Source of the DNA: Halioglobus sp.
Lineage (GTDB): Bacteria > Pseudomonadota > Gammaproteobacteria > Pseudomonadales > Halieaceae
Reading direction: 5' to 3'
Assembly (NCBI GenBank): GCA_036961205.1
Contig: JBALVI010000010.1
Location: 18,377 to 82,376 of the forward strand
DNA: 64,000 bases
Each line of letters starts with the position of its first letter. Positions within the stretch are counted from its first letter, which is position 1. The notes beneath the pieces were generated by a model that saw nothing but the letters and a program-made list of their open reading frames with translations, was not told where the DNA came from and did not search any database. Both the position numbers and the translations under genes were made by a program. Below are positions 1 through 21,435 of the stretch, piece by piece.

Positions 1-119
1 CGATCCAAGCAACGCTTGAATAGTTCATAGCATGCTCTCCCAGATATGACCCGTGAGCCAGCCCCGGCACCTTCGCGGCTAGACATACCTGCTATAGCTT
101 CTTTCCACGCATCAGACAT
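1..119 (-). CDS. hypothetical protein (N-terminal fragment; gene runs off the left edge)
   Basis: The frame is open from the ATG at 119 to position 1 on the minus strand. An AAAGGA lies about 9 nt upstream of the ATG. Translation begins MSDAWKEAIAGMSSREGAGAGSRVISGRACYELFKRCLD. No family recognised. Confidence 0.3.
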   Translation of the reverse strand, partial: MSDAWKEAIAGMSSREGAGAGSRVISGRACYELFKRCLD

Positions 120-396
120 TTCGTTGATCCTTTTAGGTTGACAGTTGATTCAACGAAACATTGAGCAAGCGCCGTACCAACTCACTAAGCCTATGAATTA
201 TCAGTATATTTTCAAGGTGAGTGAGTTCAGCGGAGAGCGGTTTTGCAAATCCAATTGCATTTTGCGTTTTTTTCTAAGAGACAGCGGCGCTATTGGTGTG
301 CTTAGCGCGCTCAATGCAAGATTGGATTACTCAATATGATTATATATTTAGGTAATTCAATAGGTTAGATGACTTCATGACCCTGGAAGAGCCGAT

Positions 397-411
397 TGGC
401 ACGGTCCCTGC
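397..411 (+). promoter_or_regulatory. sigma-54 (-24/-12) promoter candidate P1, upstream of the GT4 operon
   Basis: The sequence is TGGCACGGTCCCTGC(T), with GG at 398-399, N10, then GC at 410-411. It deviates once from the TGGCAC-N5-TTGCW consensus. It is intergenic and co-oriented with the downstream genes. Confidence 0.6.
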
Positions 412-598
412 TAACAATCGGCTAATAGAAACCAGACCACGACGTGAGCGGTAAACACATTATGACTGCTGAACAATTAAGCATTGTCACTTGCACTTAC
501 ACCCCCAACGTCAAGCGCTGTAAACGTCTGTGCAGCTTCGTAGACCGACTGCTTAGCCAGAGACATCAAATCGATCTTTTAATACGGACTCCAGCGAC

Positions 599-1846
599 AT
601 GAAAAAATTACTCTTTATCACTCCGGAACTTCCCTATCCCGCCCAGAGTGGCGGCAAAGTTAAAAGCCTGAAACTGTTGCACGCTCTGGCTGAAAAATAC
701 GAGGTGACGCTGGCCTGCCCTCTCAAGATGGAGGATGCACAGTACGTCGAGGAGTTTTATGCTATCTCACCCTGCGCCCACCACTTGCACCAGGAAGTTA
801 GCATACCGCGTACACCGGGCAACCTCATCCTGAGCTATCTTCGAGGCATCCCCTTAAATGTACATCGCACTTACAACGTGCAATTACAAAACAACATCGC
901 GGCTTTAGCCAGCGAGCAGGACGTCGTTTTCCTGGATCATTATGAGGTTTACCCCTACCTGCCAACCGACTACCAAGGGCTGGCTATTTATCACGCACAC
1001 AATGCCTATTTCAAGATGTGGGAGCGTTACGCTCAACTGCCGGGAAATCCAATAATGCGTGCGGCAGCCTATATGGAATCTAGGCGAGTAAAAAAGTATG
1101 AAACTCAGGTTTCCAACAATACAGACCTGTCTTTTGCCGCTCCAAATGATGCCTTGGAGCTGGCTAAAGCAGGCGCGTGCAAAGACAAGCTGCATGAAAC
1201 CTTTCACCTGGGTGACGACCAGCAGCTCGAACTGCCCGAGCTGCAGTATGCCGACACCGAGAAAAAACTTATGTATGTTGGAATTCTGGGATGGGAGCCT
1301 AACTCCCAGGGACTGTTATGGTTCATTGATCAGGTCTGGCCGAAGTTAGTCGAGCGCCATCCGGACTTACAACTAGATATTGTCGGCAAGGGCCCGGACC
1401 AGCGACTGCAAGATGCAGCAGCCAAGTGGGCAGGTATAACCCTGAGAGGTTTCGTTCCCGATCTTCAGGGGATTTATAAAAACAGCCGCGTTTCCGTGGC
1501 ACCTCTCACGTTCGGTAGTGGTATGAAAGTCAAAGTACTGGACTCTATGACGAGAGGTATGCCCACCGTAACAACCAGTGTTGGTGCGGAAGGTATTGAT
1601 GTTGAGCACGGTACGCACATGCTAATCGCCGACGAACCTGCAGAAATGGCAACATACATAAATCAGCTTTTGAACGACCCCGAATTGTGGCTACACCTGC
1701 AAAAGAACTCCCGTGAACTGATCACTGAACGCTATACCTGGCGACAGCTGTTCATCCAGATGCACCGCACTATCGAATCCGGCTTGCACGATAAAAGGAA
1801 TATAAGCTCTAGACAGACAGAGCAAGGGCTGCTGCATGCAGGCTGA
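599..1846 (+). CDS. glycosyltransferase, GT-B fold group 1 (GT4-like)
   Basis: 415 aa. The N-terminus MKKLLFITPELPYPAQSGGK and the C-terminal block GSGMKVKVLDSMTRGMPTVTTSVGAEG...ADEPAEM are typical of group 1 glycosyltransferases. It sits in an EPS gene context. Confidence 0.88.
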   Translation: MKKLLFITPELPYPAQSGGKVKSLKLLHALAEKYEVTLACPLKMEDAQYVEEFYAISPCAHHLHQEVSIPRTPGNLILSYLRGIPLNVHRTYNVQLQNNIAALASEQDVVFLDHYEVYPYLPTDYQGLAIYHAHNAYFKMWERYAQLPGNPIMRAAAYMESRRVKKYETQVSNNTDLSFAAPNDALELAKAGACKDKLHETFHLGDDQQLELPELQYADTEKKLMYVGILGWEPNSQGLLWFIDQVWPKLVERHPDLQLDIVGKGPDQRLQDAAAKWAGITLRGFVPDLQGIYKNSRVSVAPLTFGSGMKVKVLDSMTRGMPTVTTSVGAEGIDVEHGTHMLIADEPAEMATYINQLLNDPELWLHLQKNSRELITERYTWRQLFIQMHRTIESGLHDKRNISSRQTEQGLLHAG

Positions 1847-3212
1847 TCAGACCACCGGGGGCGTCATTGCGGCTACCACTGGAGAGCTTGGCGCGCGGAC
1901 ACAGAAACTAGCGCATCTCGTAAACAAGCTCCTTCCCGCGCTCAAACTGGTGGCCAGCCGCGGCAGCGCCATTCTCGCTCAGTTCGCCGCCCAATTGGTC
2001 GTGGGAACGATGGCTGGCGCAGGCGCATTGGGCGCCCTGCAGCTGCTCACATCCTGGACATGCATAGCGGGTGAAGTGTTGGGACTTGGCCTGCCCACTC
2101 GCGCAATGAGGCAAGTGTCCATTAGTTACGAGCAGCAACAGCCGAAGCAAATATTGCAGACCCTGCGCGAATCGCGCAGAAAAATTTTCCGGCTGTGGCT
2201 TACGCTGGCTCTGCTCGCCGCTTTACCCGCTATCTTTTTGGCGCGCAGCCAAGACACCGCCACCTGGACCGAATATAGCTGGCTGTTAATAGCCGCCGGT
2301 CTTGCTGCGCCGCTTTTCTCTCTGGTACGACTGTATGCGGAATCACTGAAAGCCACCGGCGCTGCCTTGGCGGCGGTAACGATCGAGAGCCTGACCTCAC
2401 CACTGGCATTGCTGCTGGCCTGCGCCTACTGCTGGCTAGCAGGACATCCAGTCGTTACTTTCACCCTCGTTATGACTTTCGGACTGAGCCTGGTTATCAC
2501 GCCCGTGGCGTTAAGCCACAGGCTCAAGCAGCAAATCGCAGGACTTGCACTGTCAGCCACCAAAACTCGCGACGCTCACGCCCCATCAAAAGTTGAGCGT
2601 GGCGACCTGTTCTATCTATGGAGTACTGGTGTACTCAGTATCAGTTTCATGCATTTACCTTTTCTGGTGATGCCGCTCTACATGGATACCGAGCAGATAG
2701 GTGTTTTTGCCGTCGCCCATAAATTAATAAATGTCATTACCACCCTACTGCTCTTGTTAGCCGCCGTATTTGGACCCTCATTCGCCCGTTACGCCGCCCA
2801 AGACAATTCACAAGCGTTATTGGGCCTACTGCGGCGCACACAACTTATCTCCACCGCTGTGTTCCTGCCAGTCTCGCTACTGCTGATAGCACTAGCGGAA
2901 CCACTGGCAGGACTGTTCGGTGAGGACTTCGGTAATCTGCAAATATACCTTGCCATACTAGCCGCTGGACACTTGGTCAATGCGGCGACCGGCCTATCTG
3001 GCGTGCTCATGAACATGGCCGGTGCCGCGTCCAAGGAAATGTACACGCTGATCATTGCCATGATCGCGGCACTGGCCGGCAGCGCCTGGGTTGGCCCGGA
3101 GTACGGCGCAATCGGACTCGCAATAGTCTTTAGCAGCAGTATCGCCCTGAAAAATATTGCCTCCTATCTACTGGCAATAAACCTCCTGAAACCAGCAAGA
3201 GAATCATCGTGA
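1836..3212 (+). CDS. polysaccharide biosynthesis protein / Wzx-like flippase (MOP superfamily)
   Basis: 458 aa with many (10 or more by eye) hydrophobic segments. Overlaps the upstream GT by 11 nt. Position in an EPS operon is consistent with the call. Confidence 0.75.
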   Translation: MQADQTTGGVIAATTGELGARTQKLAHLVNKLLPALKLVASRGSAILAQFAAQLVVGTMAGAGALGALQLLTSWTCIAGEVLGLGLPTRAMRQVSISYEQQQPKQILQTLRESRRKIFRLWLTLALLAALPAIFLARSQDTATWTEYSWLLIAAGLAAPLFSLVRLYAESLKATGAALAAVTIESLTSPLALLLACAYCWLAGHPVVTFTLVMTFGLSLVITPVALSHRLKQQIAGLALSATKTRDAHAPSKVERGDLFYLWSTGVLSISFMHLPFLVMPLYMDTEQIGVFAVAHKLINVITTLLLLLAAVFGPSFARYAAQDNSQALLGLLRRTQLISTAVFLPVSLLLIALAEPLAGLFGEDFGNLQIYLAILAAGHLVNAATGLSGVLMNMAGAASKEMYTLIIAMIAALAGSAWVGPEYGAIGLAIVFSSSIALKNIASYLLAINLLKPARESS

Positions 3213-4153
3213 AACCACTAGACTTCCTGATTGTCGGTGCGCAGAAATGCGCCACCACCGCTCTGTTTGAACATCTTCGCAGCCATCCCGATATCGCTAT
3301 GCCGCTGGAAAAGGAGGTGCCGTTCTTTACCGGCCAGAATTGCTCCCAGGAGAGCTGGGAGGCTTTCGCGGATGAACAATTTGGCGCCGAACAACACAAC
3401 AAGCTGTGGGCCAAGGCGAGCCCGCAATACATGTCAGACCCCGACGTGCCGGCGCGCATTAAAGAACTGATGCCCGAGGTCAAGCTCGTGGCTATTTTAC
3501 GTGACCCAATGGAGCGCAGCTGGTCCCACTTTCAGATGGGGCGCCGCCGAGATACCGAGCATCGCGAGTTCACTGCGTCCATTGAAGCACTTCTTACAGA
3601 AGAAGCACTGCAAAGGGGGCGCACACTCCCGGCACCAGAACATACCGGGGGCTACGAGTCAGAGGCTGACTTCTACGTTGCCTGGAGTGAGTACGGACGC
3701 ATCCTCACTGAATTCACTGCATCTTTTGACCCCAAGCAAATACTAGTACTGTATACAGAGGATCTGGAAAAAGAACCAGCGGCTACCCTGGACCGTCTAT
3801 TGGATTTTATCGGACTACCCTCCGGCTTTCGCCCGCCGGCACTGGGTGAAGTCATCCACCGCGGCGGTGGCTCCAACAAGCGCATACCGCAATCTGTGCG
3901 GGAGTGGCTGCGGAATCGCAAGATCTTGTATAGATTGTGGCAGAGCGTGCCGGACGCGCGCCGCGGTCGCCTGCGCTTTCAGTATGAGCAGTGGAATATC
4001 CGGCGCAGCGGCAATACCCACGGCAATGACATGCTGCTACCTGAAGACCTGCAGGAACAACTGCGCAGGCACTACACTGCGGACATCGAATCACTGCTGT
4101 CCCTGCCAATAGCCCCGCCTCCCTGGCTAGATCGGTATCTGGCCAGTAGCTAA
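3209..4153 (+). CDS. PAPS-dependent sulfotransferase family protein
   Basis: The GTG start overlaps the flippase stop. It has a 5'-PSB-like loop (LIVGAQKCATTAL) and a 3'-PB-like motif (ILRDPMERSWSHF). Confidence 0.82.
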   Translation: MKPLDFLIVGAQKCATTALFEHLRSHPDIAMPLEKEVPFFTGQNCSQESWEAFADEQFGAEQHNKLWAKASPQYMSDPDVPARIKELMPEVKLVAILRDPMERSWSHFQMGRRRDTEHREFTASIEALLTEEALQRGRTLPAPEHTGGYESEADFYVAWSEYGRILTEFTASFDPKQILVLYTEDLEKEPAATLDRLLDFIGLPSGFRPPALGEVIHRGGGSNKRIPQSVREWLRNRKILYRLWQSVPDARRGRLRFQYEQWNIRRSGNTHGNDMLLPEDLQEQLRRHYTADIESLLSLPIAPPPWLDRYLASS

Positions 4154-4344
4154 TGACCAGCGCGATATCCAGAATCTATGAGTGCCTCTTCATTGGCAAT
4201 CGCAGCTTACGACTTCCGAAATTCCGCATTTTGCGAAACTGAAACTACCGCATTTTGCGGATTATTTTGCAAACTTGCCTTTCTGACTTTAAACAAAACT
4301 CCATAACCCATTGTTTTAATTGAGATTTAATTACTTTTACAAGT

Positions 4345-4360
4345 TGGCATCGGTATTGCT
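4345..4360 (+). promoter_or_regulatory. sigma-54 (-24/-12) promoter candidate P2, upstream of the export gene
   Basis: The sequence is TGGCATCGGTATTGCT, with GG at 4346-4347, N10, then GC at 4358-4359. It lies 40 nt upstream of the ATG at 4400. Confidence 0.7.
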
Positions 4361-4399
4361 AATACACAGTGTATTCATTAATTTTCCCGAGCCAGCGCT

Positions 4400-7360
4400 A
4401 TGAGCAACGTACACCGCCCAACCATGCGAGCCGCCCTTGAGAAACTCGTGGCAGCACGCCAGTTCAGCGCAAGCCTGATCTCCTTATGCATCGCAGCAGT
4501 TGTCCTGTCCACACCAGCCATTGCCGTCAACGACGCTTACTTGTCCTATGTAGAACCCCTGCAATCCATTCAGGCAAGAAGCTATGCACAGTCCGCACCC
4601 CGAGGACAGGACGAGACCGTGCTGGACCCGGCTGAGCCAATACAGATACCGGTAGGCATCATTGAGAGAGAAGAATCCCGACTCGAGCAGATAGCCGATG
4701 AGAAAAGTGGCCCCCTGAACCTTGAGGAAACTCAACAGGAACAAGTGCTGCATTCCGACCTCACGCAATTTGGCTACGACATATTTAACCAGGTGCAGAG
4801 CGCGCCTGCTTCGGCATCGGGCATTCCCGTGCCACCCAACTACCTGATAGGCCCCGCGGACAACATCATCGTGCAGCTTTTCGGCAAGCGCAATGTGGAA
4901 TACAAGCTAATCGTAACCCGCGACGGCAACATCCTCGTACCTGAGTACGGCCCTATTAAAGTTGCCGGCATGACCTTCGACGAGGCAGAGCAGCTTATCA
5001 CTGTAGGTTTCGAACGACGGGTAATCGGTGCCAAAGTGGTGGTAACCATGGGGCAACTGCGCACTGTCCAGATACGACTCGCCGGAGATGTTACTCAACC
5101 TGGGGTCTACACCGTAGGCGGCCTCACCACCATGATAGACGCGCTGCTAACCACCGGTGGCGTACGACCCACCGGAACACTACGCAACATAGAACTAATC
5201 AGGGGCGGTGAGCGTATCGCTAGCCTGGATCTCTACGGCCTGCTATTGAACGGGCGCATCAACCAGGACTCTTATCTGGACCACAACGACACTATCTTCG
5301 TTCCACCCATCGGCCCTATCGTCTACGTGGGAGGCGAGGTACAACGCCCCGCTATCTACGAGATAAAAGGCGAAAAGACGGTGGGGCAGATAATCGGGAT
5401 GGCCGGCGGACTACTGCCGACCGCGTCACTGCAGCACTCACATATTGAGCGAATACAGGCAGCAGGTATTCGCACCCTGGTCGACTTTTCTACCACCAGC
5501 ACCCGCAGCCCCGAACAAGCAATTCTGGGCACTGCAGTCCAAACCGGAGATCTCCTGCGAATTTTGCCTCTGGAAGATGAATTGGAAGACATAATTTTAC
5601 TGTCGGGTCACGTTAAACGTCCCGGCGGGTTCCAATTCAGACCGGGTATGCGCATCTCCGACATTGTGCCCAGCGCCGAAGTTCTCCTGCCGGGTGCAGA
5701 CGTGGATTTCGTGCTCGTCAAAAGAGAAAACCTCAAAACCCTGCGCACCGAAGTGGTCTATGCCAACCTCATGCAGGCACTGACGAGCACCGGTGGCCAA
5801 GGTGATATTGAGCTGCAGTCACACGACCAAATCATGGTATTTAATCTGGCCAAAGATCGCGAACAGGTAGTGAACGACATTGTCCGGGAACTGGATATAC
5901 AGGCTACTCATCATCGTCCTGCCAGGGTCATCGAAGTTCGGGGAGCACTGCGCTACACCGGTAGGTTACCGCTAGAAGAAGGAGCCCGTCTGCTTGATAT
6001 TATCGCCCTGTCCGGGGGACTGCAGCCCGGCACGGAAATGTACTATGGCGTCATCGCACGCACCCGTTATCCCGAGCGGGATATCGAGGCCGTCCCATTC
6101 AAAATAGCCGCCGCCCTCGTCGATCCAGCAGCACCGGCTAACCTCGCCATCGAGCCGGGAGATCGGCTGTATTTCTTCGACGATCGGAGTGACCGCTCAG
6201 AATTATTGAACAGTGAAATCACCCGCCTGCGCCAACAAGCCAGTTATGGCGCGGATGAGCGCCTGGTGGCAATACAAGGTGAGGTGCTGCATTCGGGCAC
6301 CTACCCACTGGGGCACGATATGCGCGCCAGTGACTTGCTCTGCGCAGCTCGTGGCCTGACCCGCAAGGCTTATGGTTTGACCGCCGAGCTCTCACGCATA
6401 CAACGCAATGCCAGCAGCAGCAATGAGGTAAAGCACACAACACTGGACAGCTTGAAACTCCTGTCGCTTTGCGAACTCACAAAGCAGGCCGCAAGCGGGA
6501 GAATAAAGGTCACTGACAACAACGAATTACTCGCACTCTATGTCGATGAACACACTAACCCTATCCTGGCGCCCATGGACCAGCTAACTTTTACAGAGAA
6601 ATCAGGTTGGGTAGAGCGTGCCTCAGTAACGCTGTTTGGCGAAGTGCAGCGCCCAGGCGTATATGCCATAAATCGAGGTGAAACACTGTGCGAAGTTTTA
6701 CAACGCGCTGACGGCCTGACGCCCGAAGCCTATATCTTTGGCTCCGAATTCACCCGCGAATCGGTACGCGCCATGCAACAGGAAACTCTGGATGAACTGC
6801 AGGACCAACTAGACGACCTGATGATCGAGTTGTCTCTTTCCCATTCGTTCAACAACCGGGATAAAACAAGCCATGACTGGGCCGGCAGACAGGATTACAT
6901 CAAGACGATTCGCCAACTGGAGAGCGCTGAAGCCAATGGCCGCATGGTCATAAACCTGGAACGCGTAGTGGAATGCCGCAAGGGTGACCAACTGGCACTG
7001 GAAGACGGCGACACCCTGACCATACCGCATACACCGGACTACGTGCAGGTGTCGGGGCAGGTTTATGTACCCACTTCCCACTTATATGACGAAGACCGAA
7101 AGATCGGTGACTACGTTGAACTGAGCGGTGGTCATACGGTATTGGGCCGACTCAAGGATACCTTTGTGATTCAGGCTAATGGGGAAGTGCTCAACTACAA
7201 GGGGAGCCGGACCTCATCGCGGATCGCGCGCAAAACCGTTATGCCAGGGGCCAGGATCTATGTGCCACTGGATGTCGATCGCATGAATGGTACCGAGAAA
7301 GCACAGAGCTGGATTTCATCACTGATGCAGTCCGCAATACTCGCCGGCCTCCTTCTCTAG
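4400..7360 (+). CDS. polysaccharide export protein, Wza/SypC-like, with about seven SLBB-type repeats
   Basis: 986 aa with an N-terminal hydrophobic anchor. A Poly_export-like block is present (YLIGPADNIIVQLFG...DGNILVPEYGPIKVAGMTFDEAE). It is followed by repeated G-x-V-x-x-P-G-x-Y units: GDVTQPGVYTV, GEVQRPAIYEI, GHVKRPGGFQF, GALRYTGRLPL, GEVLHSGTYPL, GEVQRPGVYAI and GQVYVPTSHLY. Confidence 0.9.
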   Translation: MSNVHRPTMRAALEKLVAARQFSASLISLCIAAVVLSTPAIAVNDAYLSYVEPLQSIQARSYAQSAPRGQDETVLDPAEPIQIPVGIIEREESRLEQIADEKSGPLNLEETQQEQVLHSDLTQFGYDIFNQVQSAPASASGIPVPPNYLIGPADNIIVQLFGKRNVEYKLIVTRDGNILVPEYGPIKVAGMTFDEAEQLITVGFERRVIGAKVVVTMGQLRTVQIRLAGDVTQPGVYTVGGLTTMIDALLTTGGVRPTGTLRNIELIRGGERIASLDLYGLLLNGRINQDSYLDHNDTIFVPPIGPIVYVGGEVQRPAIYEIKGEKTVGQIIGMAGGLLPTASLQHSHIERIQAAGIRTLVDFSTTSTRSPEQAILGTAVQTGDLLRILPLEDELEDIILLSGHVKRPGGFQFRPGMRISDIVPSAEVLLPGADVDFVLVKRENLKTLRTEVVYANLMQALTSTGGQGDIELQSHDQIMVFNLAKDREQVVNDIVRELDIQATHHRPARVIEVRGALRYTGRLPLEEGARLLDIIALSGGLQPGTEMYYGVIARTRYPERDIEAVPFKIAAALVDPAAPANLAIEPGDRLYFFDDRSDRSELLNSEITRLRQQASYGADERLVAIQGEVLHSGTYPLGHDMRASDLLCAARGLTRKAYGLTAELSRIQRNASSSNEVKHTTLDSLKLLSLCELTKQAASGRIKVTDNNELLALYVDEHTNPILAPMDQLTFTEKSGWVERASVTLFGEVQRPGVYAINRGETLCEVLQRADGLTPEAYIFGSEFTRESVRAMQQETLDELQDQLDDLMIELSLSHSFNNRDKTSHDWAGRQDYIKTIRQLESAEANGRMVINLERVVECRKGDQLALEDGDTLTIPHTPDYVQVSGQVYVPTSHLYDEDRKIGDYVELSGGHTVLGRLKDTFVIQANGEVLNYKGSRTSSRIARKTVMPGARIYVPLDVDRMNGTEKAQSWISSLMQSAILAGLLL

Positions 7361-7424
7361 ACCGAAAGATTAGACAATTAGCTGGCAAAACTTAGAGAGC
7401 GCAACATAGCAAACATACTTATTA

Positions 7425-9026
7425 ATGGAGATATCTGACATGGCCACCATCACCTACCCGTCAACCCGGGACTGCTTTAACTCGCTGGGCATTCCCGTCG
7501 ACAACCTGTCACTGCAAGACGCAGTAGACCGAATCGTCGCGATGACAAAAGACTATAATGGAAGGACTCAGCTGGTTTCGACGCTAAACGTCGACTTCTT
7601 GGTGAATTCGCTGGGGTATGCGTTTACCCGGCCGCGCCATCCCGAACTGCTGAACGTATTGCGCTCATCGGATATGGTGACAGCGGATGGCTTCCCTATT
7701 ATCTGGTTAAGCAAAATCGTGGGTAAGCCCCTCAAGCAACGCGTCGCTGGCTCAGACCTGACACCGGCGCTGGCTGCGCGCGCAGCAAAAGAAGGGCTAT
7801 CACTTTTTCTGCTGGGAGGCGCTGAGGGACTGGCGGCCGCAGCGGCCAATGCCTTGCAGTTAGCAAACCCCACGTTGAAAATCGCCGGCACATCGGCGCC
7901 GTTCGTCAATACCCAGGGCCCCGCCCTGAAGGACTTCGCCGCAGATGACCAGGCCCTGCTGAAAAATATTAACAGTTCTGATGCTGACATATTGCTGGTA
8001 GGACTGGGCAATCCCAAGCAAGAGCTGTGGTTCAATCGCAATCGACATAAACTGCAGGTGCCTGTCGCTATTGGCGTGGGTGGCACTTTCGAGTTCATTA
8101 CCGGCACAGTCAAACGCGCACCCCGCTGGATGCAGAAATCCAATCTCGAGTGGCTATTTCGGATTACCCAGGACCCCGAACGGTTGTGGCGACGCTACGC
8201 AACGGGGATGATAAAACTCGCAGTACTGACAGCCCCGCTTATTTACTATCGCGCTAAAGAAAGTGTGTTTTACAGGCCCGCACCCGCTACCGAAGGACCC
8301 AGCATTGTCTGGCAATCTGTCTGGTCCTCTCGTAACCAATCACTGGCTGCGGTGCGACTCCCGCGTCTGGTCAGTGCCCGCTATCTGGAAAAACTGGTGT
8401 CTTCGTTGCAGCAAGAGCATGCCAGCACGGCACTGCGACTACTGGACTTCAGCAACGTCAAACATATTGAGATCGCCGGGCATCAGGAATTTTTTCGCCT
8501 TGCGCAGCTACTGACAGACCCGCAGAGCGATATTTCAGTACTGGGACTACCAAAGGCGGTTAAACGTCTGCTTGGCGCGTGTCGCATCATGGATGTAGTT
8601 GGCGAAAACCATAATGGCAACACACTTAGCACCTTGTCATATTCACCGCTCGACAAAAACGTACAGGAGACGGGCTGTAAAAGTTATGTCATGAGCAATA
8701 CGGCGCTTATGTTTCTGTCCGGCCGGGTCAACGGCGAGGGATTGGCAGGGATCGGCTTCGTGGAGTGCCTACTGCACGCCGCTCGAGACCGCACCTGTAT
8801 TGTCGATTTACGCAATGTAACACTACTGGAAAGTACGGCGATCGCCGAACTTGAACCGCTCATTGCGTCACACCAGACAAGTGGCGACGGTGCAATCATG
8901 GTCAGTGGGGCAGATGCCAATGCCCGTCAAATGTTCCGCATGACCGGGCTGGGCGAAAGCGTCATTTTTATTGACGATATAACCTTGCTGGCCAGCATCG
9001 CAGCTGAGGGCCAACATTATAAGTAA
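7425..9026 (+). CDS. WecB/TagA/CpsF-family glycosyltransferase fused to two C-terminal STAS-like domains
   Basis: The N-terminal ~270 aa carry TLNVDFLVNS, DGFPIIWLSK, LFLLGG, GLGNPKQELWF and GVGGTFEFITGTVKRAPRWMQKSNLEWLFRI. The C-terminal half has two segments resembling anti-sigma antagonist (STAS) cores: LDFSNVKHIEIAGHQEFFRL and DLRNVTLLESTAIAEL. The start may instead be the ATG at 7440, which has GGAG 9 nt upstream. Confidence 0.82.
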   Translation: MEISDMATITYPSTRDCFNSLGIPVDNLSLQDAVDRIVAMTKDYNGRTQLVSTLNVDFLVNSLGYAFTRPRHPELLNVLRSSDMVTADGFPIIWLSKIVGKPLKQRVAGSDLTPALAARAAKEGLSLFLLGGAEGLAAAAANALQLANPTLKIAGTSAPFVNTQGPALKDFAADDQALLKNINSSDADILLVGLGNPKQELWFNRNRHKLQVPVAIGVGGTFEFITGTVKRAPRWMQKSNLEWLFRITQDPERLWRRYATGMIKLAVLTAPLIYYRAKESVFYRPAPATEGPSIVWQSVWSSRNQSLAAVRLPRLVSARYLEKLVSSLQQEHASTALRLLDFSNVKHIEIAGHQEFFRLAQLLTDPQSDISVLGLPKAVKRLLGACRIMDVVGENHNGNTLSTLSYSPLDKNVQETGCKSYVMSNTALMFLSGRVNGEGLAGIGFVECLLHAARDRTCIVDLRNVTLLESTAIAELEPLIASHQTSGDGAIMVSGADANARQMFRMTGLGESVIFIDDITLLASIAAEGQHYK

Positions 9027-9078
9027 CAACGATAGACGATCGTCGGGCAAGCCCAGGAGCCAGCTCCGGCATCATTTT

Positions 9079-9114
9079 TCGCATATTGCCTTGCGTATTG
9101 CCTCGCATATTGCA
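9079..9114. repeat. three tandem 12-bp units carrying GCA-TAT-TGC half-palindromes (candidate activator binding sites)
   Basis: The units TCGCATATTGCC, TTGCGTATTGCC and TCGCATATTGCA are head to tail. They lie about 220-250 bp upstream of the activator gene start at 9332. Confidence 0.5.
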
Positions 9115-9331
9115 TTATAGAGAAACGAGCGGTTGACAGGGCAATGCTGAACCTACGTAAGGCAAAGCTGAAATAGAGCCTCTATCGTTAAAATATACAT
9201 ATAAAACAGAAGCTTGCGCGATTTCTTCAAATTGCATTTCATTTTGAGAAAGATGGCATACAACTTGATACTAGATAGGCAGCCTTACCAAACCTGAGGC
9301 TCAACAACGGGCGCAGAGCGGAGATAACATT

Positions 9332-10753
9332 ATGGACACACAGGCAAAAGTACTCATGGTGGAAGACAGCATCTCGCTGTCGGCCATCTATGAAGCCTAT
9401 CTGGCAGACACCGACTACAAACTAGTATGCGTTGAGACGCTCGGCTCAGCGCACGCAACATTGGGGGCCTTCCAGCCGGATATTATTCTGCTGGACATCG
9501 AACTGCCAGACGGCAATGGCATGGACTTTCTGGACGAAGCAGCTGCCCTGGAACCCGCACCCAAGATCATTATCATGACCGCACACGGCAGCTCGGATAT
9601 GGCGGTGGAGGCAATCCAGAAAGGCGCATTCGACTTCCTGACCAAACCATTTGATGCAGCCCGCCTTAGAGTGACATTGGACAACGCCGCCGCCCAACTA
9701 ACACTGGGTAAAAGAGCCGACAAACTGGCACAGCTTGAGCGAGATCACTACTGCAATTTCATTGGTAAATCACTGGCAATGCAATCAGTGTACAAAACTA
9801 TCGATTCTCTGGCCGCCAGCGATGCCACCGGCTTTATCGTCGGGGAAAGCGGCACAGGGAAGGAGTTGGCCGCGGAAGCCATCCACCAGCAAAGCCCGCG
9901 CCACGACGCCGAATTCATAGCCATCAACTGCGGCGCCATACCCGGTGAACTGATGGAAAGCGAGCTGTTCGGACACGTCAAGGGTGCGTTTACTGGAGCC
10001 AGCACCAACCGCGAAGGCGCCGCCAGCGTTGCCAATGGCGGTACTCTATTCCTGGATGAGATTTGCGAGATGAGCCTGGATTTGCAGAAAAAACTGCTGC
10101 GCTTCATCCAAACTGGAACTTTCCGCAAGGTGGGCAGTAATACATTGGAACAGGTGGATGTGCGCTTTGTATGCGCGACCAATCGGGATCCGTTGGTAGA
10201 AGTTCGCGAGGGGCGCTTTCGTGAAGACCTTTTTTATCGACTGCATGTTATACCGGTACGGATGCCGCCATTGCGCGAACGAGAGGCCGATGTGCTAATG
10301 ATCGCCAATCATTTCCTGCAGCAGTTCAGCGACCGTGAAGGCAAGCAGTTTGACGGCTTTTCAGAGGATGCGGCCGAGGCCATTCGTCGCTACCCCTGGC
10401 CAGGTAATGTGCGCCAGCTGCAGAACGCAATGCAGCAAGTTGTGGTGCTCAACGAAGGAACAGCAGTGGATTATCACATGCTTCCCGATCTGGTTATTAG
10501 CGGCAACCTGGAGCATGAGACGCCATTTACGGCCACAGTTTCTTCGATTACCAGTCCGCGCGAACCGGGGGCGCAACAGGCGCATATGACACGCCGACAG
10601 CAGATCGAACCGTTATGGCTCACTGAAAAAAATACTGTGGAGGCGGCGATTGATTCTTGCGATGGCAACATTAACCAGGCTGCCGGACTGCTTGAAGTAG
10701 CACCGTCAACCCTTTACCGAAAATTGCAGTCCTGGAAGAAAATGCAGGCCTGA
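9332..10753 (+). CDS. sigma-54-dependent response regulator (REC-AAA+-HTH), LuxO/SypG-like
   Basis: It has a receiver (DIILLDIELPDGNG), Walker A (GESGTGKE), the GAFTGA loop (HVKGAFTGAS) and a Fis-type HTH (INQAAGLLEVAPSTLYRKL). Long collinear blocks match Vibrio LuxO as recalled from memory: LLRFIQTGTF.KVGS, VDVRFVCATNRDP, EGRFREDL.YRL and PLW.TEK. Confidence 0.9.
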   Translation: MDTQAKVLMVEDSISLSAIYEAYLADTDYKLVCVETLGSAHATLGAFQPDIILLDIELPDGNGMDFLDEAAALEPAPKIIIMTAHGSSDMAVEAIQKGAFDFLTKPFDAARLRVTLDNAAAQLTLGKRADKLAQLERDHYCNFIGKSLAMQSVYKTIDSLAASDATGFIVGESGTGKELAAEAIHQQSPRHDAEFIAINCGAIPGELMESELFGHVKGAFTGASTNREGAASVANGGTLFLDEICEMSLDLQKKLLRFIQTGTFRKVGSNTLEQVDVRFVCATNRDPLVEVREGRFREDLFYRLHVIPVRMPPLREREADVLMIANHFLQQFSDREGKQFDGFSEDAAEAIRRYPWPGNVRQLQNAMQQVVVLNEGTAVDYHMLPDLVISGNLEHETPFTATVSSITSPREPGAQQAHMTRRQQIEPLWLTEKNTVEAAIDSCDGNINQAAGLLEVAPSTLYRKLQSWKKMQA

Positions 10754-10778
10754 TCACAACCAGCAAGGAAATTTTGCC

Positions 10779-11330
10779 ATGTACGGCTTAATAAATAATT
10801 CTCTAAAAAGTATGATACTCGAACAGTTCGGCGAGGAGCAGTGGCAGAAGGTGCTGTCGAGTTCTGGTGTTTCAGAAGATTCTTTTCTCACCATGCGCAG
10901 CTATGACGACAGTATTACTTACTCGCTGGCGGGTGCCGCAGCGGAAGTACTGGGCGCGCCGGTAGAAGTCTGCCTTGAGATGTTCGGTGAATATTGGGTA
11001 TTGGAAACCGCGACCAAATCATACGGCATGCTGCTCAATGCTACGGGGCAGGACATGATCGAATTTCTGGGTAATATGAATGCCCTGCATGATCGTATTA
11101 CCAGTACCTTCCTCAACTACACTCCCCCTGAGTTCTTTATCGAAACCAAGGAAAGCCACCATCTTATTCACTATGTGAGTCAGCGGGAGGGCTTAACGCC
11201 TTTTGTTGTGGGGCTACTTAAGGGCCTCGCGAAACGGTTTAACAGCACGCTCACCATCATATCGCAGAGCGAAGTGGCAGTAGATCATGGCGCACACACC
11301 ATTTTTGAAGTAGAGATATTAGCTGCATGA
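10779..11330 (+). CDS. hnoX: H-NOX (heme nitric oxide/oxygen binding) sensor protein
   Basis: 183 aa with N-terminus MYGLINNSLKSMILEQFGEE. It has a candidate proximal His in NALHDRITS, a conserved Pro region (YTPPEF) and the YxSxR heme-propionate motif as YVSQR. Its stop overlaps the kinase start (ATGA). Confidence 0.88.
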   Translation: MYGLINNSLKSMILEQFGEEQWQKVLSSSGVSEDSFLTMRSYDDSITYSLAGAAAEVLGAPVEVCLEMFGEYWVLETATKSYGMLLNATGQDMIEFLGNMNALHDRITSTFLNYTPPEFFIETKESHHLIHYVSQREGLTPFVVGLLKGLAKRFNSTLTIISQSEVAVDHGAHTIFEVEILAA

Positions 11331-13402
11331 ACCGGCCGCTGAACATCTGCTGGAAGGACTTGCACAGCCTGTTCTCTGTTGTGATGTGTATCGACGAATC
11401 CATGAACCTAATCTACGCTAGCGAAACACTCAGTAAGTGCTTACCTGAAACAAAGCATAAACCCAAACTGCTAGAGATATTCGATACCTTGCGACCAGCT
11501 TCACTAGCGACCTTCAATGATGGAATCAACGCCCTGGACTCGCTTTGCCTGCTAACGGCAAAGAATGGAAAATTCGCTATCAGGGGACAGCTATTACGCA
11601 CGCAGTATCAGGAGCAGGATGTTTTATGCTTCTGCGGAGCACCGTGGCTGTTCTGGATCAACACAAATTGTCCTGAAATCAAATTGGGCCTAAGTGACTT
11701 TTCAGCCCAGGATGTCCAGCTGGACCAGTTGTTCTTCATGTCCACAGAAAGACAAATGGTTGATGACCTGGAACAACTGAACACAGATCTAAAGGCCGCC
11801 AAACAACAGCTGGAAGAGGCGCAGGAAGCGCAAAGACAGTTCTTTGCCCAAATGAGTCATGAAATTCGAACACCGTTAAACGGTGTGGTTAGCGCCCTGT
11901 CGCTGCTGGACCATCACCCAACGGGCCCCGAACAGTTCAACCTCATTCGACTTGCTCGAAGTTCATCCGAAAATCTGATGCAGGTGATCAATTATGTACT
12001 GAACGTATCTAAACTGGAACTCTCACCCCATCGAGACCAGGAACTATTCAGCTGGCCAGACTTGATCCGCTCCTCGATCGATATTGTCGTAGCCAAAGCG
12101 GAAGAGAAATCATTGCAGGTTGAGCTCGACATTTCACCCGACTTACCAAACACCTGTTATGGCAATCCCGCCCGTTTAAGGCAAACTTTGTTAAATCTCG
12201 CCATCAATGCAATCAAGTTTACTGACACAGGCACGATCACTATCCGCGCGCTGCCTGTGCACCATGCACAAGACCATTGCATTCTGCGGCTGGAGGTCAT
12301 CGATACAGGAATTGGTATCCTGGAAGACCACTTACCCCATATCTTCGACCCTTTCTGGAGCTTTCAGCCGGACCGTACTGCCGCGCAAACTGACCGCCGC
12401 GCATATGACGAGGGCACTGGGCTCGGCCTGGATATCGTGAGGCGTAATGTTCGAAGCATGGGCGGGGAAGTCATGGTGAAATCCACACCAGGTCAAGGGG
12501 CAAAGTTCTGGTTCGAACTGCCAGTAACACTGCCACACGAAACCCAGTCGCCATCCGAGAACGCACCGGCGCAACAGGAACCAGACACGGTGGAACTTAC
12601 AGGCAGGGTCATGTTGGTAGACGACAATGAGACCAATTTGTTACTGGGCTCCATGATCCTGGAATCAATGGGACTTGAAGTAACCAAGGTCGACAGTGGT
12701 GGCGCCGCTGTAGCCACAGCGAGGCAACAACAATTCGACCTCGTACTGATGGATATCAGCATGCCAGACATCGATGGACTGGACGCCACCCGGCAAATTC
12801 GCGCCTTCGCCGGCAGCGACCTGCTGCCGATTGTTGCCCTAACGGCCCGTACAGACGATAAAGAGAAAGCAGCCTGCCTTGACATCGGAATGGATGATTA
12901 CCTGACCAAACCCATTGTCCGGGAGGAACTCCATAAAGCGCTAGCTACCTGGCTCGCTAAAGATAAAAAAACGCATTCAAACGAAGCTGCCGAAAGCATG
13001 AAATACGAGAGCAACGCAGTGGATACTGAACTTGTGACCCAAAGTGTCATAGATGAATTGATTCGACAAATAGGGCGTGACAACTTACGGATTGTAATCA
13101 GCAAAGTGCGAACCGAAGCTACCCAGCGCTGGGATGAACTGGTAACTGCCGACAAACAGGGCGATAGGGACGCGACACAGCGCCATGTGCATAGCCTGGC
13201 AAGTATTTTCCGCAGCGTAGGCCTCATGCCAGTGGGCGATGCACTCGGGGCGATAGAAGCCAAATTGCGCGCCGGCAAAGAAGTACCGTCGGGGTGGCTG
13301 AATGAGCTCGAGAAGCTAAAAACCGATAGTATCATCGCTTTGGCAGAGCAAATGGAAGAACAGTCAAAACCCTCGCCGAAAATTCAAACCGACACTAAAT
13401 AA
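11327..13402 (+). CDS. H-NOX-associated hybrid sensor histidine kinase (HisKA-HATPase-REC-Hpt)
   Basis: It has an H-box (FFAQMSHEIRTPLNGV), N box (LLNLAINAIKFT), G boxes (DTGIGI, GTGLGLDIV) and a receiver (VMLVDDNETN...LVLMDISMPDIDG...DDYLTKP). The C-terminal Hpt-like motif is HVHSLASIFRSVG. It has no obvious TM segments, so it is probably cytoplasmic. Confidence 0.9.
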   Translation: MNRPLNICWKDLHSLFSVVMCIDESMNLIYASETLSKCLPETKHKPKLLEIFDTLRPASLATFNDGINALDSLCLLTAKNGKFAIRGQLLRTQYQEQDVLCFCGAPWLFWINTNCPEIKLGLSDFSAQDVQLDQLFFMSTERQMVDDLEQLNTDLKAAKQQLEEAQEAQRQFFAQMSHEIRTPLNGVVSALSLLDHHPTGPEQFNLIRLARSSSENLMQVINYVLNVSKLELSPHRDQELFSWPDLIRSSIDIVVAKAEEKSLQVELDISPDLPNTCYGNPARLRQTLLNLAINAIKFTDTGTITIRALPVHHAQDHCILRLEVIDTGIGILEDHLPHIFDPFWSFQPDRTAAQTDRRAYDEGTGLGLDIVRRNVRSMGGEVMVKSTPGQGAKFWFELPVTLPHETQSPSENAPAQQEPDTVELTGRVMLVDDNETNLLLGSMILESMGLEVTKVDSGGAAVATARQQQFDLVLMDISMPDIDGLDATRQIRAFAGSDLLPIVALTARTDDKEKAACLDIGMDDYLTKPIVREELHKALATWLAKDKKTHSNEAAESMKYESNAVDTELVTQSVIDELIRQIGRDNLRIVISKVRTEATQRWDELVTADKQGDRDATQRHVHSLASIFRSVGLMPVGDALGAIEAKLRAGKEVPSGWLNELEKLKTDSIIALAEQMEEQSKPSPKIQTDTK

Positions 13403-13418
13403 TCGACCCCGCGTCACT

Positions 13419-13691
13419 ATGCCTGTTATCGAAAAAGTGTCTGGTGCTGCCGCTAGAAGAATAAGAGCTGCGCTTTTATTCCTATGGCTACTGTTGCTGA
13501 TATGGCGCCTGTTCGATTTAGTCGAGGAGGCTATAACCGGAACCCTAAAGATGAGCATAGGAACATGGGGCATTACAGGTGTTGATGCGGGAGTAGTGCA
13601 ATTAGTAATTGTCGGCGCTTTAGGTTGTATTGTTTTCATCGCCTACAGTCATACGCGACAAGAGCTCTCTCCTGGATCAAAAGACCCATAA
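13419..13691 (+). CDS. small hypothetical membrane protein
   Basis: 90 aa with two hydrophobic segments (ALLFLWLLLLIW and VVQLVIVGALGCIVFIAY). It starts 17 nt after the kinase stop. No clear Shine-Dalgarno. Confidence 0.3.
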   Translation: MPVIEKVSGAAARRIRAALLFLWLLLLIWRLFDLVEEAITGTLKMSIGTWGITGVDAGVVQLVIVGALGCIVFIAYSHTRQELSPGSKDP

Positions 13692-13762
13692 ACCAGAGAG
13701 CCTAAACCCACACTGCAACAGTGCGAACCTCAACTGCGCCTAGCAACCCCACTCTCAAGATT

Positions 13763-13775
13763 TTGCATTCTGCAA
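13763..13775. promoter_or_regulatory. perfect TTGCA-N3-TGCAA palindrome (candidate LuxO-type enhancer site)
   Basis: TTGCATTCTGCAA, centred about 90 bp upstream of the -24 GG of promoter P4. Confidence 0.5.
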
Positions 13776-13857
13776 CCTGATTTCGGCAACATTCGCAATA
13801 CGCTATTCTCGCAGCGCCAAATTAGGCAACTATCCCGCAATTACCACCCCATTCGGC

Positions 13858-13873
13858 TGGCACGCAACTTGCT
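13858..13873 (+). promoter_or_regulatory. sigma-54 (-24/-12) promoter candidate P4
   Basis: The sequence is TGGCACGCAACTTGCT, with GG at 13859-13860, N10, then GC at 13871-13872. This is a full consensus match. It is co-oriented with the ORF at 13966. Confidence 0.72.
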
Positions 13874-13965
13874 ATATCTCATGTAGACATAATTAAACGC
13901 CGGGTATATTCAGACCAATGGGCCTGGTAAGTAAAAACATCCACGCAAACCCAAGGAGATAAACC

Positions 13966-14220
13966 ATGCAAACCCTAACGGCACAACACAGCACATCATC
14001 CTCAGCTCAGCCCTATCGACGCCGCGCCTGTACAGACTCAGGGTATGTGATGGATCCACTAAGTCTGGCCCACTTGAATTTCGGTTTATTCGGGACTCTT
14101 TGCAAGCTTGGCACCTCACAGGAACGAATTTGTTCCGCCTTGAATATCAGCTATCGAGACTTCGACTATCTTCAGGAACTTACCTCTACTCAGCGTCAGA
14201 AATTAAGCGGCGGGGGCTAA
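13966..14220 (+). CDS. hypothetical small protein (84 aa) ending in SGGG
   Basis: It has a strong SD (AAGGAG, 7 nt spacer, ATG) and lies downstream of sigma-54 promoter P4. No family recognised. Confidence 0.55.
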   Translation: MQTLTAQHSTSSSAQPYRRRACTDSGYVMDPLSLAHLNFGLFGTLCKLGTSQERICSALNISYRDFDYLQELTSTQRQKLSGGG

Positions 14221-14594
14221 CCCCTATGCCTTGTACTTGAGGTAACACAGGTGCCAGACACCCTGCCCCACCTTACCAAAAAAATCTCCTTAGCTTTCTT
14301 CAGCTTGCTGGCCAGCCTCACCACACACCAGCCGACTCGTACTCAGCGGGTCGATTATTCCAATCACTCTGGACCCACCAGTTTCTTTGTTAGTCATAGC
14401 TAGAGCGTCGACTATGCGTAGTTGCCTATAGGTTGGTGTCGGTAGGTCGGTTAAACAATAGGGATGCATTCATTCGATGCTATTGCAGACCGCAATGCAG
14501 ATCTTATCCGTGTCCGGATTTCATCTAATAAATGCGTCCCCATTAATCCTCATCGCGCATTGTGTGGACTGCCGTCGACTACTTGAATTACACG

Positions 14595-15128
14595 CTATTC
14601 GTAGTTGTCCTTCAGCACAAAGAAGGCGGTAAAAAGCAAAGCCGCGCTAAAAGGAAGCGCAATCCAGATACCGTCAATTCCCAGCATGGTCTCGAAAGTC
14701 ACTTTGCCGAAATTGGCTGGCTTGATCAGTAAATTTTCCAGATAGGGGTATGCCAGAGAGAACAAAAAAGCTCCAGTAAATGCACCCGCCACAGTAAATA
14801 TAGCGTCTTTTTTACCTTCCGACGCGCCGACCACACAGGTGCCCGGACAATAGCCGGAGACGGCCCAACCGATGCCGAAGATAACGCCGCCGGCAATGAC
14901 ACCCCAGACGTAGGCGGGTTTGATGCTCATATTGGCCAAGCCACCCATATCGAGAAGGTAAATCCCCAATGTACCTACGCCGATGGCTGTCATCATTAGC
15001 TTTATAATCGCCATGTCTTTGAGCAGTAACGTGCCCAAAATCTTACGATAGCTGGAAGCGCCACCCAGGTATAGAATTGCGCCGAAGGCACAACCGATTG
15101 CAAATCCTATGAAAAGAGTCATTGTCAT
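14595..15128 (-). CDS. YeeE/YedE family sulfur-compound transporter half (C-terminal-type)
   Basis: 177 aa polytopic membrane protein with the SGYCPGTC motif. Overlaps its upstream partner by 4 nt. Confidence 0.82.
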   Translation of the reverse strand: MTMTLFIGFAIGCAFGAILYLGGASSYRKILGTLLLKDMAIIKLMMTAIGVGTLGIYLLDMGGLANMSIKPAYVWGVIAGGVIFGIGWAVSGYCPGTCVVGASEGKKDAIFTVAGAFTGAFLFSLAYPYLENLLIKPANFGKVTFETMLGIDGIWIALPFSAALLFTAFFVLKDNYE

Positions 15129-15661
15129 ACACCTCGCTTTCGGTAGAGGAATTTAGCCATAAGAATCGCCGCGCCAAACGTGGCAATGCCGAAGATAAAT
15201 GAACTCAGGGCCAATTGGGATATGCCGCTAATCATGTGCCCGCTGGTACATCCACCGGCGAGGCGAGCGCCAAATAAAAGTAGTACACCACCGAAAAACG
15301 CCGCTAGGTACCGCTTCGCGATCGAGGCGCCGAAGTTCTGTTTCCACATTGTCGGCATAGAACCCTTATCTGCTTCCGGCTGTCTGCCCCGAAAGAGCGT
15401 GGAGGTAACGGCGCCACCGACCAACATGCCGAGTACAAGCATCCAGCCATAGCCAATTCCCCAATCGGTTTTTTCACCATATTTTGACAAGTAGGTGTTT
15501 GCTTCCGCAAACTCAGGGGCGAGTTGGTGTACGATTGCCGCGTCTGATACTACAAATTGCGTCGAGACACCCAGTGGTTTGACCAGGGCTGTCGCGAGAA
15601 CAAGCAGCAGGCCAAGGGAAATACCTGCCGCCTTCCACGAGATGATGGGGTTATCGCTCAT
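15125..15661 (-). CDS. YeeE/YedE family sulfur-compound transporter half (N-terminal-type)
   Basis: 178 aa polytopic membrane protein with the GGCTSGHMISG motif characteristic of the Sulf_transp (YeeE/YedE) family. Confidence 0.82.
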   Translation of the reverse strand: MSDNPIISWKAAGISLGLLLVLATALVKPLGVSTQFVVSDAAIVHQLAPEFAEANTYLSKYGEKTDWGIGYGWMLVLGMLVGGAVTSTLFRGRQPEADKGSMPTMWKQNFGASIAKRYLAAFFGGVLLLFGARLAGGCTSGHMISGISQLALSSFIFGIATFGAAILMAKFLYRKRGV

Positions 15662-15692
15662 CTTATTCTCCGTCTGATTTGGGTTTGCATTC

Positions 15693-15716
15693 GAATATTA
15701 GAACTTTATAATATTC
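15693..15716. promoter_or_regulatory. perfect 8-bp inverted repeat (candidate ArsR-type operator) in the divergent yeeE / MBL promoter region
   Basis: GAATATTA-GAACTTTA-TAATATTC. It shares GAATATTAG / TATAATAT elements with the sites at 16735-16746 and 17107-17128. Confidence 0.45.
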
Positions 15717-15746
15717 TTTTAAACAAATATAACGCGGTAGCAAGCG

Positions 15747-16718: not shown

Positions 16719-16773
16719 GCGCTGCCTTTTTTTATTTGAATATTAGTATCCATTGTAATCGCACATTAATTTT

Positions 16774-17076: not shown

Positions 17077-17106
17077 AAACTGATCTCTAAAAATTGGTAG
17101 TTGCTT

Positions 17107-17128
17107 TATATTTGAATTTTATAATATA
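17107..17128. promoter_or_regulatory. AT-rich inverted repeat (candidate operator) between the arsR-like gene and soxC
   Basis: TATATT-TGAATTTTAT-AATATA. It contains a TATAAT hexamer at 17120-17125. Confidence 0.4.
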
Positions 17129-17174
17129 CTAATAAGCTGTGATTGAGAAGCCTTGAAAACAATAAGGATTTTGC

Positions 17175-19766: not shown

Positions 19767-19794
19767 ACCTGACCGAGACCACGAGGAGTATTCA

Positions 19795-20250: not shown

Positions 20251-20274
20251 CATAAACATATTAGGAGATTAGTC

Positions 20275-20586: not shown

Positions 20587-20606
20587 ATTTAACAAAGAGA
20601 TTTCAT

Positions 20607-21434: not shown

Positions 21435-21435
21435 C

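Follow-up and report, generated by a model that had tools for sequence, protein, structure and literature searches.

In a 64-kb stretch of the genome of Halioglobus sp. (GCA_036961205.1, contig JBALVI010000010.1, positions 18,377–82,376; hereafter the window, which is only part of the genome), an exopolysaccharide (EPS) locus carries two 13-bp boxes and a -24/-12 promoter element, P2, directly upstream of the gene for a 986-amino-acid polysaccharide export protein. Comparison with orthologous loci indicates that the boxes and the promoter element form a real switch of a familiar type that has been conserved in evolution, which agrees with a preliminary description made from the window alone. 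The region 4200–4400 very probably constitutes a complete enhancer-dependent sigma-54 module, which would be bound by a LuxO-like activator encoded in the same locus and placed under the control of a kinase and an H-NOX sensor. The module and the gene behind it consist of the following features.

4200–4212, no strand: weak candidate third box, the most upstream (TCGCAGCTTACGA), 24 bp 5' of box 1 and matching at seven of the eight core positions
4224–4236, no strand: activator box 1, putative upstream activating sequence (UAS), CCGCATTTTGCGA
4248–4260, no strand: activator box 2, putative UAS, CCGCATTTTGCGG
4266–4273, no strand: half-site TTTGCAAA, about 12 bp beyond the centre of box 2
4304–4316, minus strand: IHF-like bending site TAACCCATTGTTT, the reverse complement of WATCAANNNNTTR with one mismatch
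4345–4360, plus strand: predicted sigma-54 promoter P2, TGGCAT-CGGTA-TTGCT (-24 GG, -12 GC), an exact TGGCAYN5TTGCW match
4391–4395, plus strand: conserved GAGCC, a weak ribosome-binding element 5–9 nt before the ATG
4400–7360, plus strand: 986-amino-acid polysaccharide export protein (Poly_export and SLBB domains, Wza/EpsE-like), the first gene behind P2

Direct reading of the sequence bears out the two boxes as they were first described, with their centres 24 bp apart. They had been said to share a 10-mer, which is true but understates the likeness, as they actually have the 12-mer CCGCATTTTGCG in common; a 12-mer recurs within 40 bp at only three places in the window. Box 2 had been called a perfect palindrome; its 5-bp inverted repeat is indeed perfect, but the central TTT is non-palindromic, so it is not a strict palindrome. 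The half-site TTTGCAAA also stands where it was reported, and matches a TTGCRAA half-site that is conserved in orthologues and aligned as TTGCGAA, TTGCAAA or TGCGGA in L002–L005, L015 and L017. The same is true of TGGCATCGGTATTGCT at 4345–4360, which obeys the ten-base GG/GC spacing rule of TGGCAC-N5-TTGCW and whose last -12 base is followed 40 nt later by the ATG of the 986-amino-acid open reading frame (ORF). What the preliminary description missed is the conserved IHF-like site and the degenerate third box. The latter is called tentative because it scores low with the weight matrix introduced below (outside the top 30 of the window). Clear third sites are found at -144 to -149 in L005, L008, L013 and L014.

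Conservation across orthologues is the decisive evidence for the predicted boxes and promoter. Degenerate motif counts in the window alone are not above those of shuffled sequences and are not significant, and for this reason significance was drawn from the orthologues. A scan of one genome per species provided 18 orthologous loci from Halieaceae or close relatives (Halioglobus, Haliea, Oceanicoccus and Litorirhabdus), whose export proteins are 47–91% identical to that of the window; together with the window they form a comparison set of 19 sequences. All 19 have TGGCAY-N5-TTGCW ahead of the export gene at the equivalent position, 39–41 nt before the ATG in the closer relatives, while the DNA around the element has diverged to a mean column identity of 68%. 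Within the 64 kb, the exact TGGCAYN5TTGCW pattern is matched twice (0.22 expected), and both copies are intergenic and ahead of ORFs on the plus strand; if one mismatch is allowed, there are 8 matches to the -24/-12 element against 6.8 expected.

The boxes behave in the same manner. Upstream of the promoter, orthologous loci carry two or three dyads of 13 bp at intervals of about 24 bp, and the 150-bp zones upstream of the promoters in the 19 sequences contain 33 strict YGCA-N3-TGCR boxes against roughly one expected, the expectation being our own arithmetic from an overall density of 0.37 per kb and about 2.85 kb of zones. Counted from the start of the box to the TGGCA of the -24/-12 element, box 1 starts 121 nt and box 2 97 nt ahead in the window, and their equivalents in most orthologous loci start 121–125 nt and 97–101 nt ahead. 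The invariant columns of the alignment (A1) concentrate in the box cores, the IHF-like block, GTTGGCA...ATTGC and GAG...ATG. Down to 47% protein identity, the loci of Halieaceae retain the boxes with a 24-bp spacing, the -24/-12 element and the distance that separates the two.

A weight matrix for the boxes, trained on the orthologues only and with the window excluded, ranked the sites of the window that start at 13763, 255, 9103, 4224, 12277, 7854 and 4248 as first to seventh, box 1 being fourth and box 2 seventh. The top four all lie in intergenic regions of this locus; those at 13763, 255 and 4224 are upstream of sigma-54-type promoters, and that at 9103 is upstream of the activator gene.

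The consensus of the family, derived from 60 sites that were picked by eight core positions alone with the other positions left free, is TYGCAWWWTGCRA. The unselected positions are conserved too, with T at position 1 (44/60), A at position 13 (53/60) and an A/T-rich spacer; position 3 of the 13-mer is G in 53 of the 60 sites. The LuxO UAS consensus, TTGCAWWWTGCAA as quoted in PMC10162802, is included in this family consensus. Box 1 fits the LuxO UAS at 10 of 13 positions and box 2 at 9 of 13, and neither box deviates in the A/T spacer or in any of the six GCA/TGC core bases. Two or more sites lie 80–150 bp upstream of the sigma-54 promoter in the window and in most orthologues. The comparison supports a LuxO-type UAS, virtually equal to the published sequence, and not the SypG enhancer (SE) motif.

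Between the boxes and the promoter, an IHF-like block (YAANNNNTTGATW, the reverse complement of WATCAANNNNTTR) is conserved in the alignment. With at most one mismatch it occurs at a fixed position, 31 or 41–43 nt before TGGCA, in 10 of the 19 sequences (0.12 expected). From the usual distance between -12 and +1, the transcript would start near 4370–4372, and a crude pattern scan of 3900–4600 detected no sigma-70-like promoter. The N-terminus of the export protein is aligned from residue 1 in eight loci, with the GAG of the ribosome-binding element and the ATG invariant in the alignment; an exact-protein look-up of the export protein gave no match. Upstream of the export gene are genes for a GT4 glycosyltransferase, a flippase-like protein and a sulfotransferase. 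The gene downstream is the following.

7425–9026, plus strand: WecG/TagA-family glycosyltransferase with a C-terminal STAS domain

It is separated from the export gene by a 64-nt gap with no convincing terminator, and is probably co-transcribed from P2. Fusion of WecG/TagA to an anti-sigma-antagonist-like STAS domain is kept in all relatives. In Vibrio fischeri, the free-standing STAS protein SypA controls the Syp biofilm after transcription; by analogy, the STAS domain fused to the glycosyltransferase hints at a similar control directly on the enzyme.

The regulatory genes follow on the same strand.

9332–10753, plus strand: LuxO/SypG-subfamily sigma-54 activator (receiver, AAA+ domain with GAFTGA, Fis-type helix-turn-helix, HTH), the proposed binder of the boxes
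10779–11330, plus strand: H-NOX haem nitric oxide sensor (Pfam HNOB, E = 2e-45)
11327–13402, plus strand: hybrid histidine kinase (HNOBA, HisKA, HATPase, receiver and Hpt domains)

Judged by its sequence, the activator belongs to the LuxO/SypG subfamily. Among NCBIfam models, it scores 619 bits with LuxO and 403 bits with NtrC, the former value lying under the cut-off of 800 for the LuxO equivalog NF041946; its best solved structure is LuxO 5EP0 (444 bits), with NtrC1 at 312 bits. It is LuxO-like along its full length, including the HTH, and the receiver Asp, Walker A, Walker B, GAFTGA and HTH are all intact. It is the sole sigma-54 activator gene in the window and the best-conserved protein of the cluster, with 75–93% identity. 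A search for homologues of the activator yielded only relatives with an identity of 71% or more, of which the named ones were chiefly Halieaceae, and our literature search found no publication linking Halieaceae and LuxO.

The H-NOX gene lies directly before the hybrid kinase gene and overlaps its start, and the H-box, receiver Asp and Hpt His of the kinase were identified in the sequence. This pair is retained in L001–L004, L009, L015, L017, L026 and L027, of which L017 and L027 belong to the cultured Litorirhabdus singularis IMCC14734. The gene order GT4, export, WecG-STAS, activator, H-NOX and kinase is conserved in relatives, and wherever a locus extends far enough, the activator gene keeps its synteny with the boxes. 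The kinase coding region itself holds the fifth-ranked LuxO-type site of the window (TTGCATTCTGCGG, 12277–12289, 13.4 bits) and a second strict box at 12258, and no promoter element was seen near 12258 or 12277.

The scheme that we infer for the binder of the boxes, the dependence on sigma-54 and IHF, the flow of phosphate and the direction of the nitric oxide effect would operate as follows. Dimers of the phosphorylated activator would bind the 13-bp dyads at 4224–4236 and 4248–4260, possibly with a contribution from the half-site at 4266–4273 and the weak third box at 4200–4212, and would assemble into an active AAA+ ring, perhaps by cooperative formation of a hexamer on the boxes. IHF bound at 4304–4316 would bend the DNA and let the ring reach sigma-54 RNA polymerase in its closed complex at 4345–4360, and ATP hydrolysis would open P2. 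Transcription would then run from near 4371 through the export gene and probably the WecG-STAS gene too. The adjacent hybrid kinase would pass phosphate through its His, Asp and Hpt sites to the activator, and the adjacent H-NOX nitric oxide sensor would control the kinase; that nitric oxide modulates phosphotransfer to the activator is suggested by the conserved adjacency of these genes. Nitric oxide may in this way set the expression of the whole EPS locus via at least four modules, namely P0 and P1, which share one box, P2 and P4 (P0, P1 and P4 are described below).

A broader proposal, which we hold tentatively and at slightly less than an even chance, is that Halieaceae possess a self-contained circuit from nitric oxide to EPS. 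In this circuit the H-NOX protein, the Hpt-bearing kinase and the LuxO-family activator would all be encoded inside the EPS locus, and five or more sigma-54 promoters would be driven directly via LuxO-type enhancers, with no Qrr.

Several observations weigh against an enhancer-dependent module governed by the neighbouring activator. The window boxes depart from the family consensus at their outer positions (C-C...G-A/G instead of T-Y...R-A), and because of these deviations box 2 scores just 10.5 of 20.6 bits with the matrix. The close relative L002 has a core mismatch in both boxes, a sign of turnover in the quality of the sites. The 24-bp spacing amounts to about 2.3 helical turns, yet is conserved, and would place neighbouring dimers off the same face of the DNA; classical NtrC sites, in contrast, have a three-turn spacing. 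The ribosome-binding element is weak, consisting of GAG only. Finally, the 64 kb leave room for further LuxO-like paralogues elsewhere in the genome, a point that favours an alternative in which the sigma-54 promoter and enhancer are real but are bound by an activator encoded elsewhere, such as a genuine LuxO of quorum sensing, and the neighbouring regulator has other targets. This alternative would also accord with the equality of the box consensus and the Vibrio LuxO UAS, and with the sharing of sites at qrr1 by the V. fischeri paralogues LuxO and SypG (PMC10162802). We nevertheless consider it unlikely, given that the activator gene accompanies the boxes wherever the locus is long enough and is better conserved than any other gene of the cluster, that boxes also lie ahead of the activator's own gene, and that the window has no second activator gene.

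It is very unlikely that the export gene is read from a sigma-70 promoter or by read-through from P1, with TGGCA-N6-TTGC non-functional and the boxes bound by a classical repressor or activator. Loose -24/-12 matches are admittedly common (the 8 against 6.8 expected with one mismatch) and the sigma-70 pattern scan is crude, but the exact element persists in 19/19 sequences amid diverging surroundings, the scan of 3900–4600 gave no sigma-70-like match, and the boxes, the IHF-like site and the promoter make up the classical sigma-54 layout. Highly improbable, too, is that box 2 and the T-rich run (4248–4270) are the intrinsic terminator of the upstream glycosyltransferase/flippase/sulfotransferase operon and box 1 an accidental duplicate. 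CCGCATTTTGCGG followed by ATTATTTTGC was scored as terminator-like at the minimum of the scan (5 pairs), with a weak hairpin energy of -5.3 kcal/mol; the equivalent 13-mers of orthologues, however, fold at 0 to -3.9 kcal/mol, and their T-run is lost (1–5 T in 10 nt). What is conserved is the base identity of GCA/TGC and the distance to the promoter, not the strength of a stem, and boxes of the identical type lie between the divergent P0 and P1, where no gene ends. A terminator, for which a conserved GC-rich hairpin with a T tract was not found, was rejected on conservation and energy. As for chance or a neutral local duplication without function, the window-only counts, which do not exceed shuffles, would allow it, but it is already contradicted by the comparative data and retains a negligible probability: the 33 strict boxes in 19 upstream zones far outnumber the one or so expected, the position of the boxes is conserved, and a matrix built without the window recovers them. 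The enhancer-dependent sigma-54 module remains the preferred reading.

Boxes of the same kind also precede at least three further sigma-54-type promoters (P0 and P1, which share one box, and P4) as well as the activator gene.

164–179, minus strand: sigma-54-like promoter P0, TGGTACGGCGCTTGCT
255–267, no strand: box TTGCATTTTGCGT, common to the divergent P0 and P1 (matrix rank 2)
397–412, plus strand: sigma-54-like promoter P1, TGGCACGGTCCCTGCT, which would drive the glycosyltransferase, flippase and sulfotransferase unit
9079–9115, no strand: three overlapping LuxO-type boxes in 12-bp steps, upstream of the activator gene
9254–9269, plus strand: -24/-12-like element of the activator gene, TGGCATACAACTTGAT, with TTGA for TTGC
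13763–13775, no strand: the best LuxO-type site of the window (matrix rank 1), TTGCATTCTGCAA
13858–13873, plus strand: P4, a perfect sigma-54 promoter sequence, TGGCACGCAACTTGCT, ahead of an 84-amino-acid ORF at 13966–14220

The box at 255–267 is upstream of both promoters, at 141 nt from P1 and 87 nt from P0, and this shared-box geometry recurs in L003, L004, L007, L014 and L016. The gene that P0 faces in relatives encodes a Bac_transf priming sugar transferase. Between P1 and the GT4 gene, where most relatives have a full 300-amino-acid DUF6492 gene, the segment 462–554 retains no more than about 31 N-terminal residues of such a protein (48% identity to L007, E = 3e-9), and it is therefore read as a deletion remnant.

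Of the three 12-bp units that lie ahead of the activator gene at 9079–9114, two carry CGCATATTGC, exactly as had been described. The boxes at 9079–9115 are located about 140–175 nt upstream of the promoter element of the activator gene, and tandem or overlapping boxes occupy the corresponding place in L002, L007 and L018. Autoregulation of LuxO is known, and the tandem boxes ahead of the activator gene suggest that it applies here. The element of this gene is kept in its TGGYAY-N5-TTGA form in about ten orthologous loci, and it overlaps a sigma-70-like TTGAGA-17-GATACT (9244–9272). It may serve as a weak sigma-54 promoter, as a sigma-70 promoter that sigma-54 occludes, or as both.

With the best box and a perfect sigma-54 promoter, P4 is the strongest predicted module of the locus. 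Its 84-amino-acid ORF, which has a good Shine-Dalgarno sequence, matches nothing in Pfam or NCBIfam. In L026 (11481–11988) and L027 (11182–11491), 79-amino-acid homologues lie behind the promoter TGGCACGCATCTTGCT, and the proteins share MDP..LAHL.F.LF..L.KLG.S.E. The 84-amino-acid protein may be a regulatory effector. In L026 and L027, more EPS genes follow the small ORF, with additional box-plus-promoter modules; they encode an acyltransferase, a 317-amino-acid protein, DUF6492 and GT2 proteins, each block having sigma-54 promoters and boxes. These blocks are absent from the window at 14300–24000.

From about 14.6 kb the window carries a sox cluster, comprising Sulf_transp halves, SoxCD-like, SoxY, SoxA and SoxB-like genes. 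An exact 12-bp tandem duplication, TGACCCCTTGCA-TGACCCCTTGCA, occurs at 60658–60682, just beyond the 3' end of the minus-strand ORF 60691–61416, and the 13-mer CCTGACTACCATC is found at 56020 and 56047, 27 bp apart, within a coding region (56020–56060).

The Halieaceae are abundant marine gammaproteobacteria of the OM60/NOR5 group. For this widespread and genetically little-studied family, the analysis provides a precise and testable regulatory map of an EPS locus, from the boxes, the IHF site and the promoters to a probable regulator and a probable signal. On this map, aggregation or the production of biofilm matrix in Halieaceae would be under the control of nitric oxide, and structural genes outside Vibrionaceae would be driven directly through the LuxO recognition sequence, which bears on the divergence and the site sharing of the vibrio paralogues LuxO and SypG. 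If the broader proposal of a self-contained circuit is true, the locus would be a living intermediate between the LuxO quorum-sensing and the SypG biofilm regulators of vibrios, the direct control of a probably sulfated polysaccharide would be suggested as an ancestral job of the regulator family, and the conserved protein of 79–84 amino acids behind P4 could be a new downstream effector. The architecture is that of textbooks, and the value of the case lies in the extension of a known design to a new lineage with a clean comparative footprint, and not in a new mechanism; the new twist would be at the level of the circuit, in a direct wiring from nitric oxide through a LuxO-like regulator to EPS outside Vibrionaceae.

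Promoters of the NtrC/glnAp2 type, such as nifH and glnHp2, combine tandem dyads 80–150 bp upstream, an IHF bend and a -24/-12 promoter. The three-part layout is identical in the Halieaceae locus, whereas the recognition sequence, the subfamily of the regulator, the proposed signal (nitric oxide, as against nitrogen status) and the pathway are different. Some likeness also exists to the PrsK/PrsR loci of PEP-CTERM/exosortase systems, in that the export protein and the first glycosyltransferase have sub-threshold similarity to families of the XrtA/PEP-CTERM system and the activator scores 384 bits with the PrsR model, below the curated cut-off. Membership was rejected, since the hits are sub-threshold, the LuxO model scores far higher (619 bits) and the cluster showed neither an exosortase nor a PEP-CTERM protein.

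The LuxO-Qrr circuit resembles the present system more closely in its parts. The activator is most similar to LuxO, and its proposed sites are virtually the LuxO UAS, two of them upstream of a sigma-54 promoter. In V. harveyi, H-NOX and HqsK also feed LuxO, via LuxU (PMC12369376). In contrast to that circuit, the targets here are protein-coding polysaccharide genes instead of Qrr small RNAs, no separate luxU stands beside the activator, and the spacing of the boxes is 24 bp, as against about 34 bp counted in the qrr1 primer sequences of V. fischeri (PMC10162802). Rfam gave no Qrr match at the gathering score in the 64 kb, nor at E ≤ 1 in 1–15000, and a Qrr-type target for the LuxO-like regulator was dropped because Qrr was missing from the Rfam results; the promoters precede ORFs. 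The sole Rfam hit was a chance-level match to RsmY within the kinase gene. The locus is not a LuxO-Qrr circuit, because the activator remains under the equivalog cut-off, no Qrr was found in these searches and there is no separate LuxU.

The closest parallel is the syp locus of V. fischeri, to which the boxes and the internal sigma-54 promoter had been likened at the outset. There, phosphorylated SypG drives four syp promoters (PMC3843225), and nitric oxide and HnoX control HahK, which signals via the Hpt of SypF or via LuxU to SypG (PMC12369376). In both cases the EPS locus is split into several sigma-54 units, each with sites, proposed ones in the Halieaceae locus, for one locus-encoded LuxO/SypG-subfamily activator (P0, P1, P2 and P4 in the window, and more in L026 and L027), an H-NOX-paired hybrid kinase feeds, or in the Halieaceae locus would feed, the activator through an Hpt domain, and a STAS domain is present.

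The two loci also differ. The host belongs to the Halieaceae (Cellvibrionales) and not to the Vibrionaceae. The boxes follow TYGCAWWWTGCRA with G at the third position, where the SE motif, TTCTCANNNTGMDWN as quoted in PMC10162802, has T, and the window boxes have TCCGCA or ACCGCA as their left half. The Halieaceae locus itself contains the genes for H-NOX and the kinase, and the kinase carries its own Hpt, so that neither SypF nor LuxU would be needed. STAS is found here only as a C-terminal fusion to WecG, domain and family scans of the genes at 1–14.3 kb showed no SypE-like partner-switch gene, and a SypA/SypE-type partner switch is accordingly not seen; the gene content, with a sulfotransferase and the 986-amino-acid export protein, differs as well. 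The comparison bears out the syp-like reading in every part open to computational testing, with qualifications: several box-plus-sigma-54 modules and a single LuxO/SypG-subfamily activator with GAFTGA speak for it, while the boxes are not the SE motif and the locus is not a syp orthologue, because it has neither that motif nor SypE and its STAS domain is fused to a glycosyltransferase. The Halieaceae locus would nevertheless work like syp, because one locus-encoded activator of the LuxO/SypG family appears to serve several sigma-54 units.

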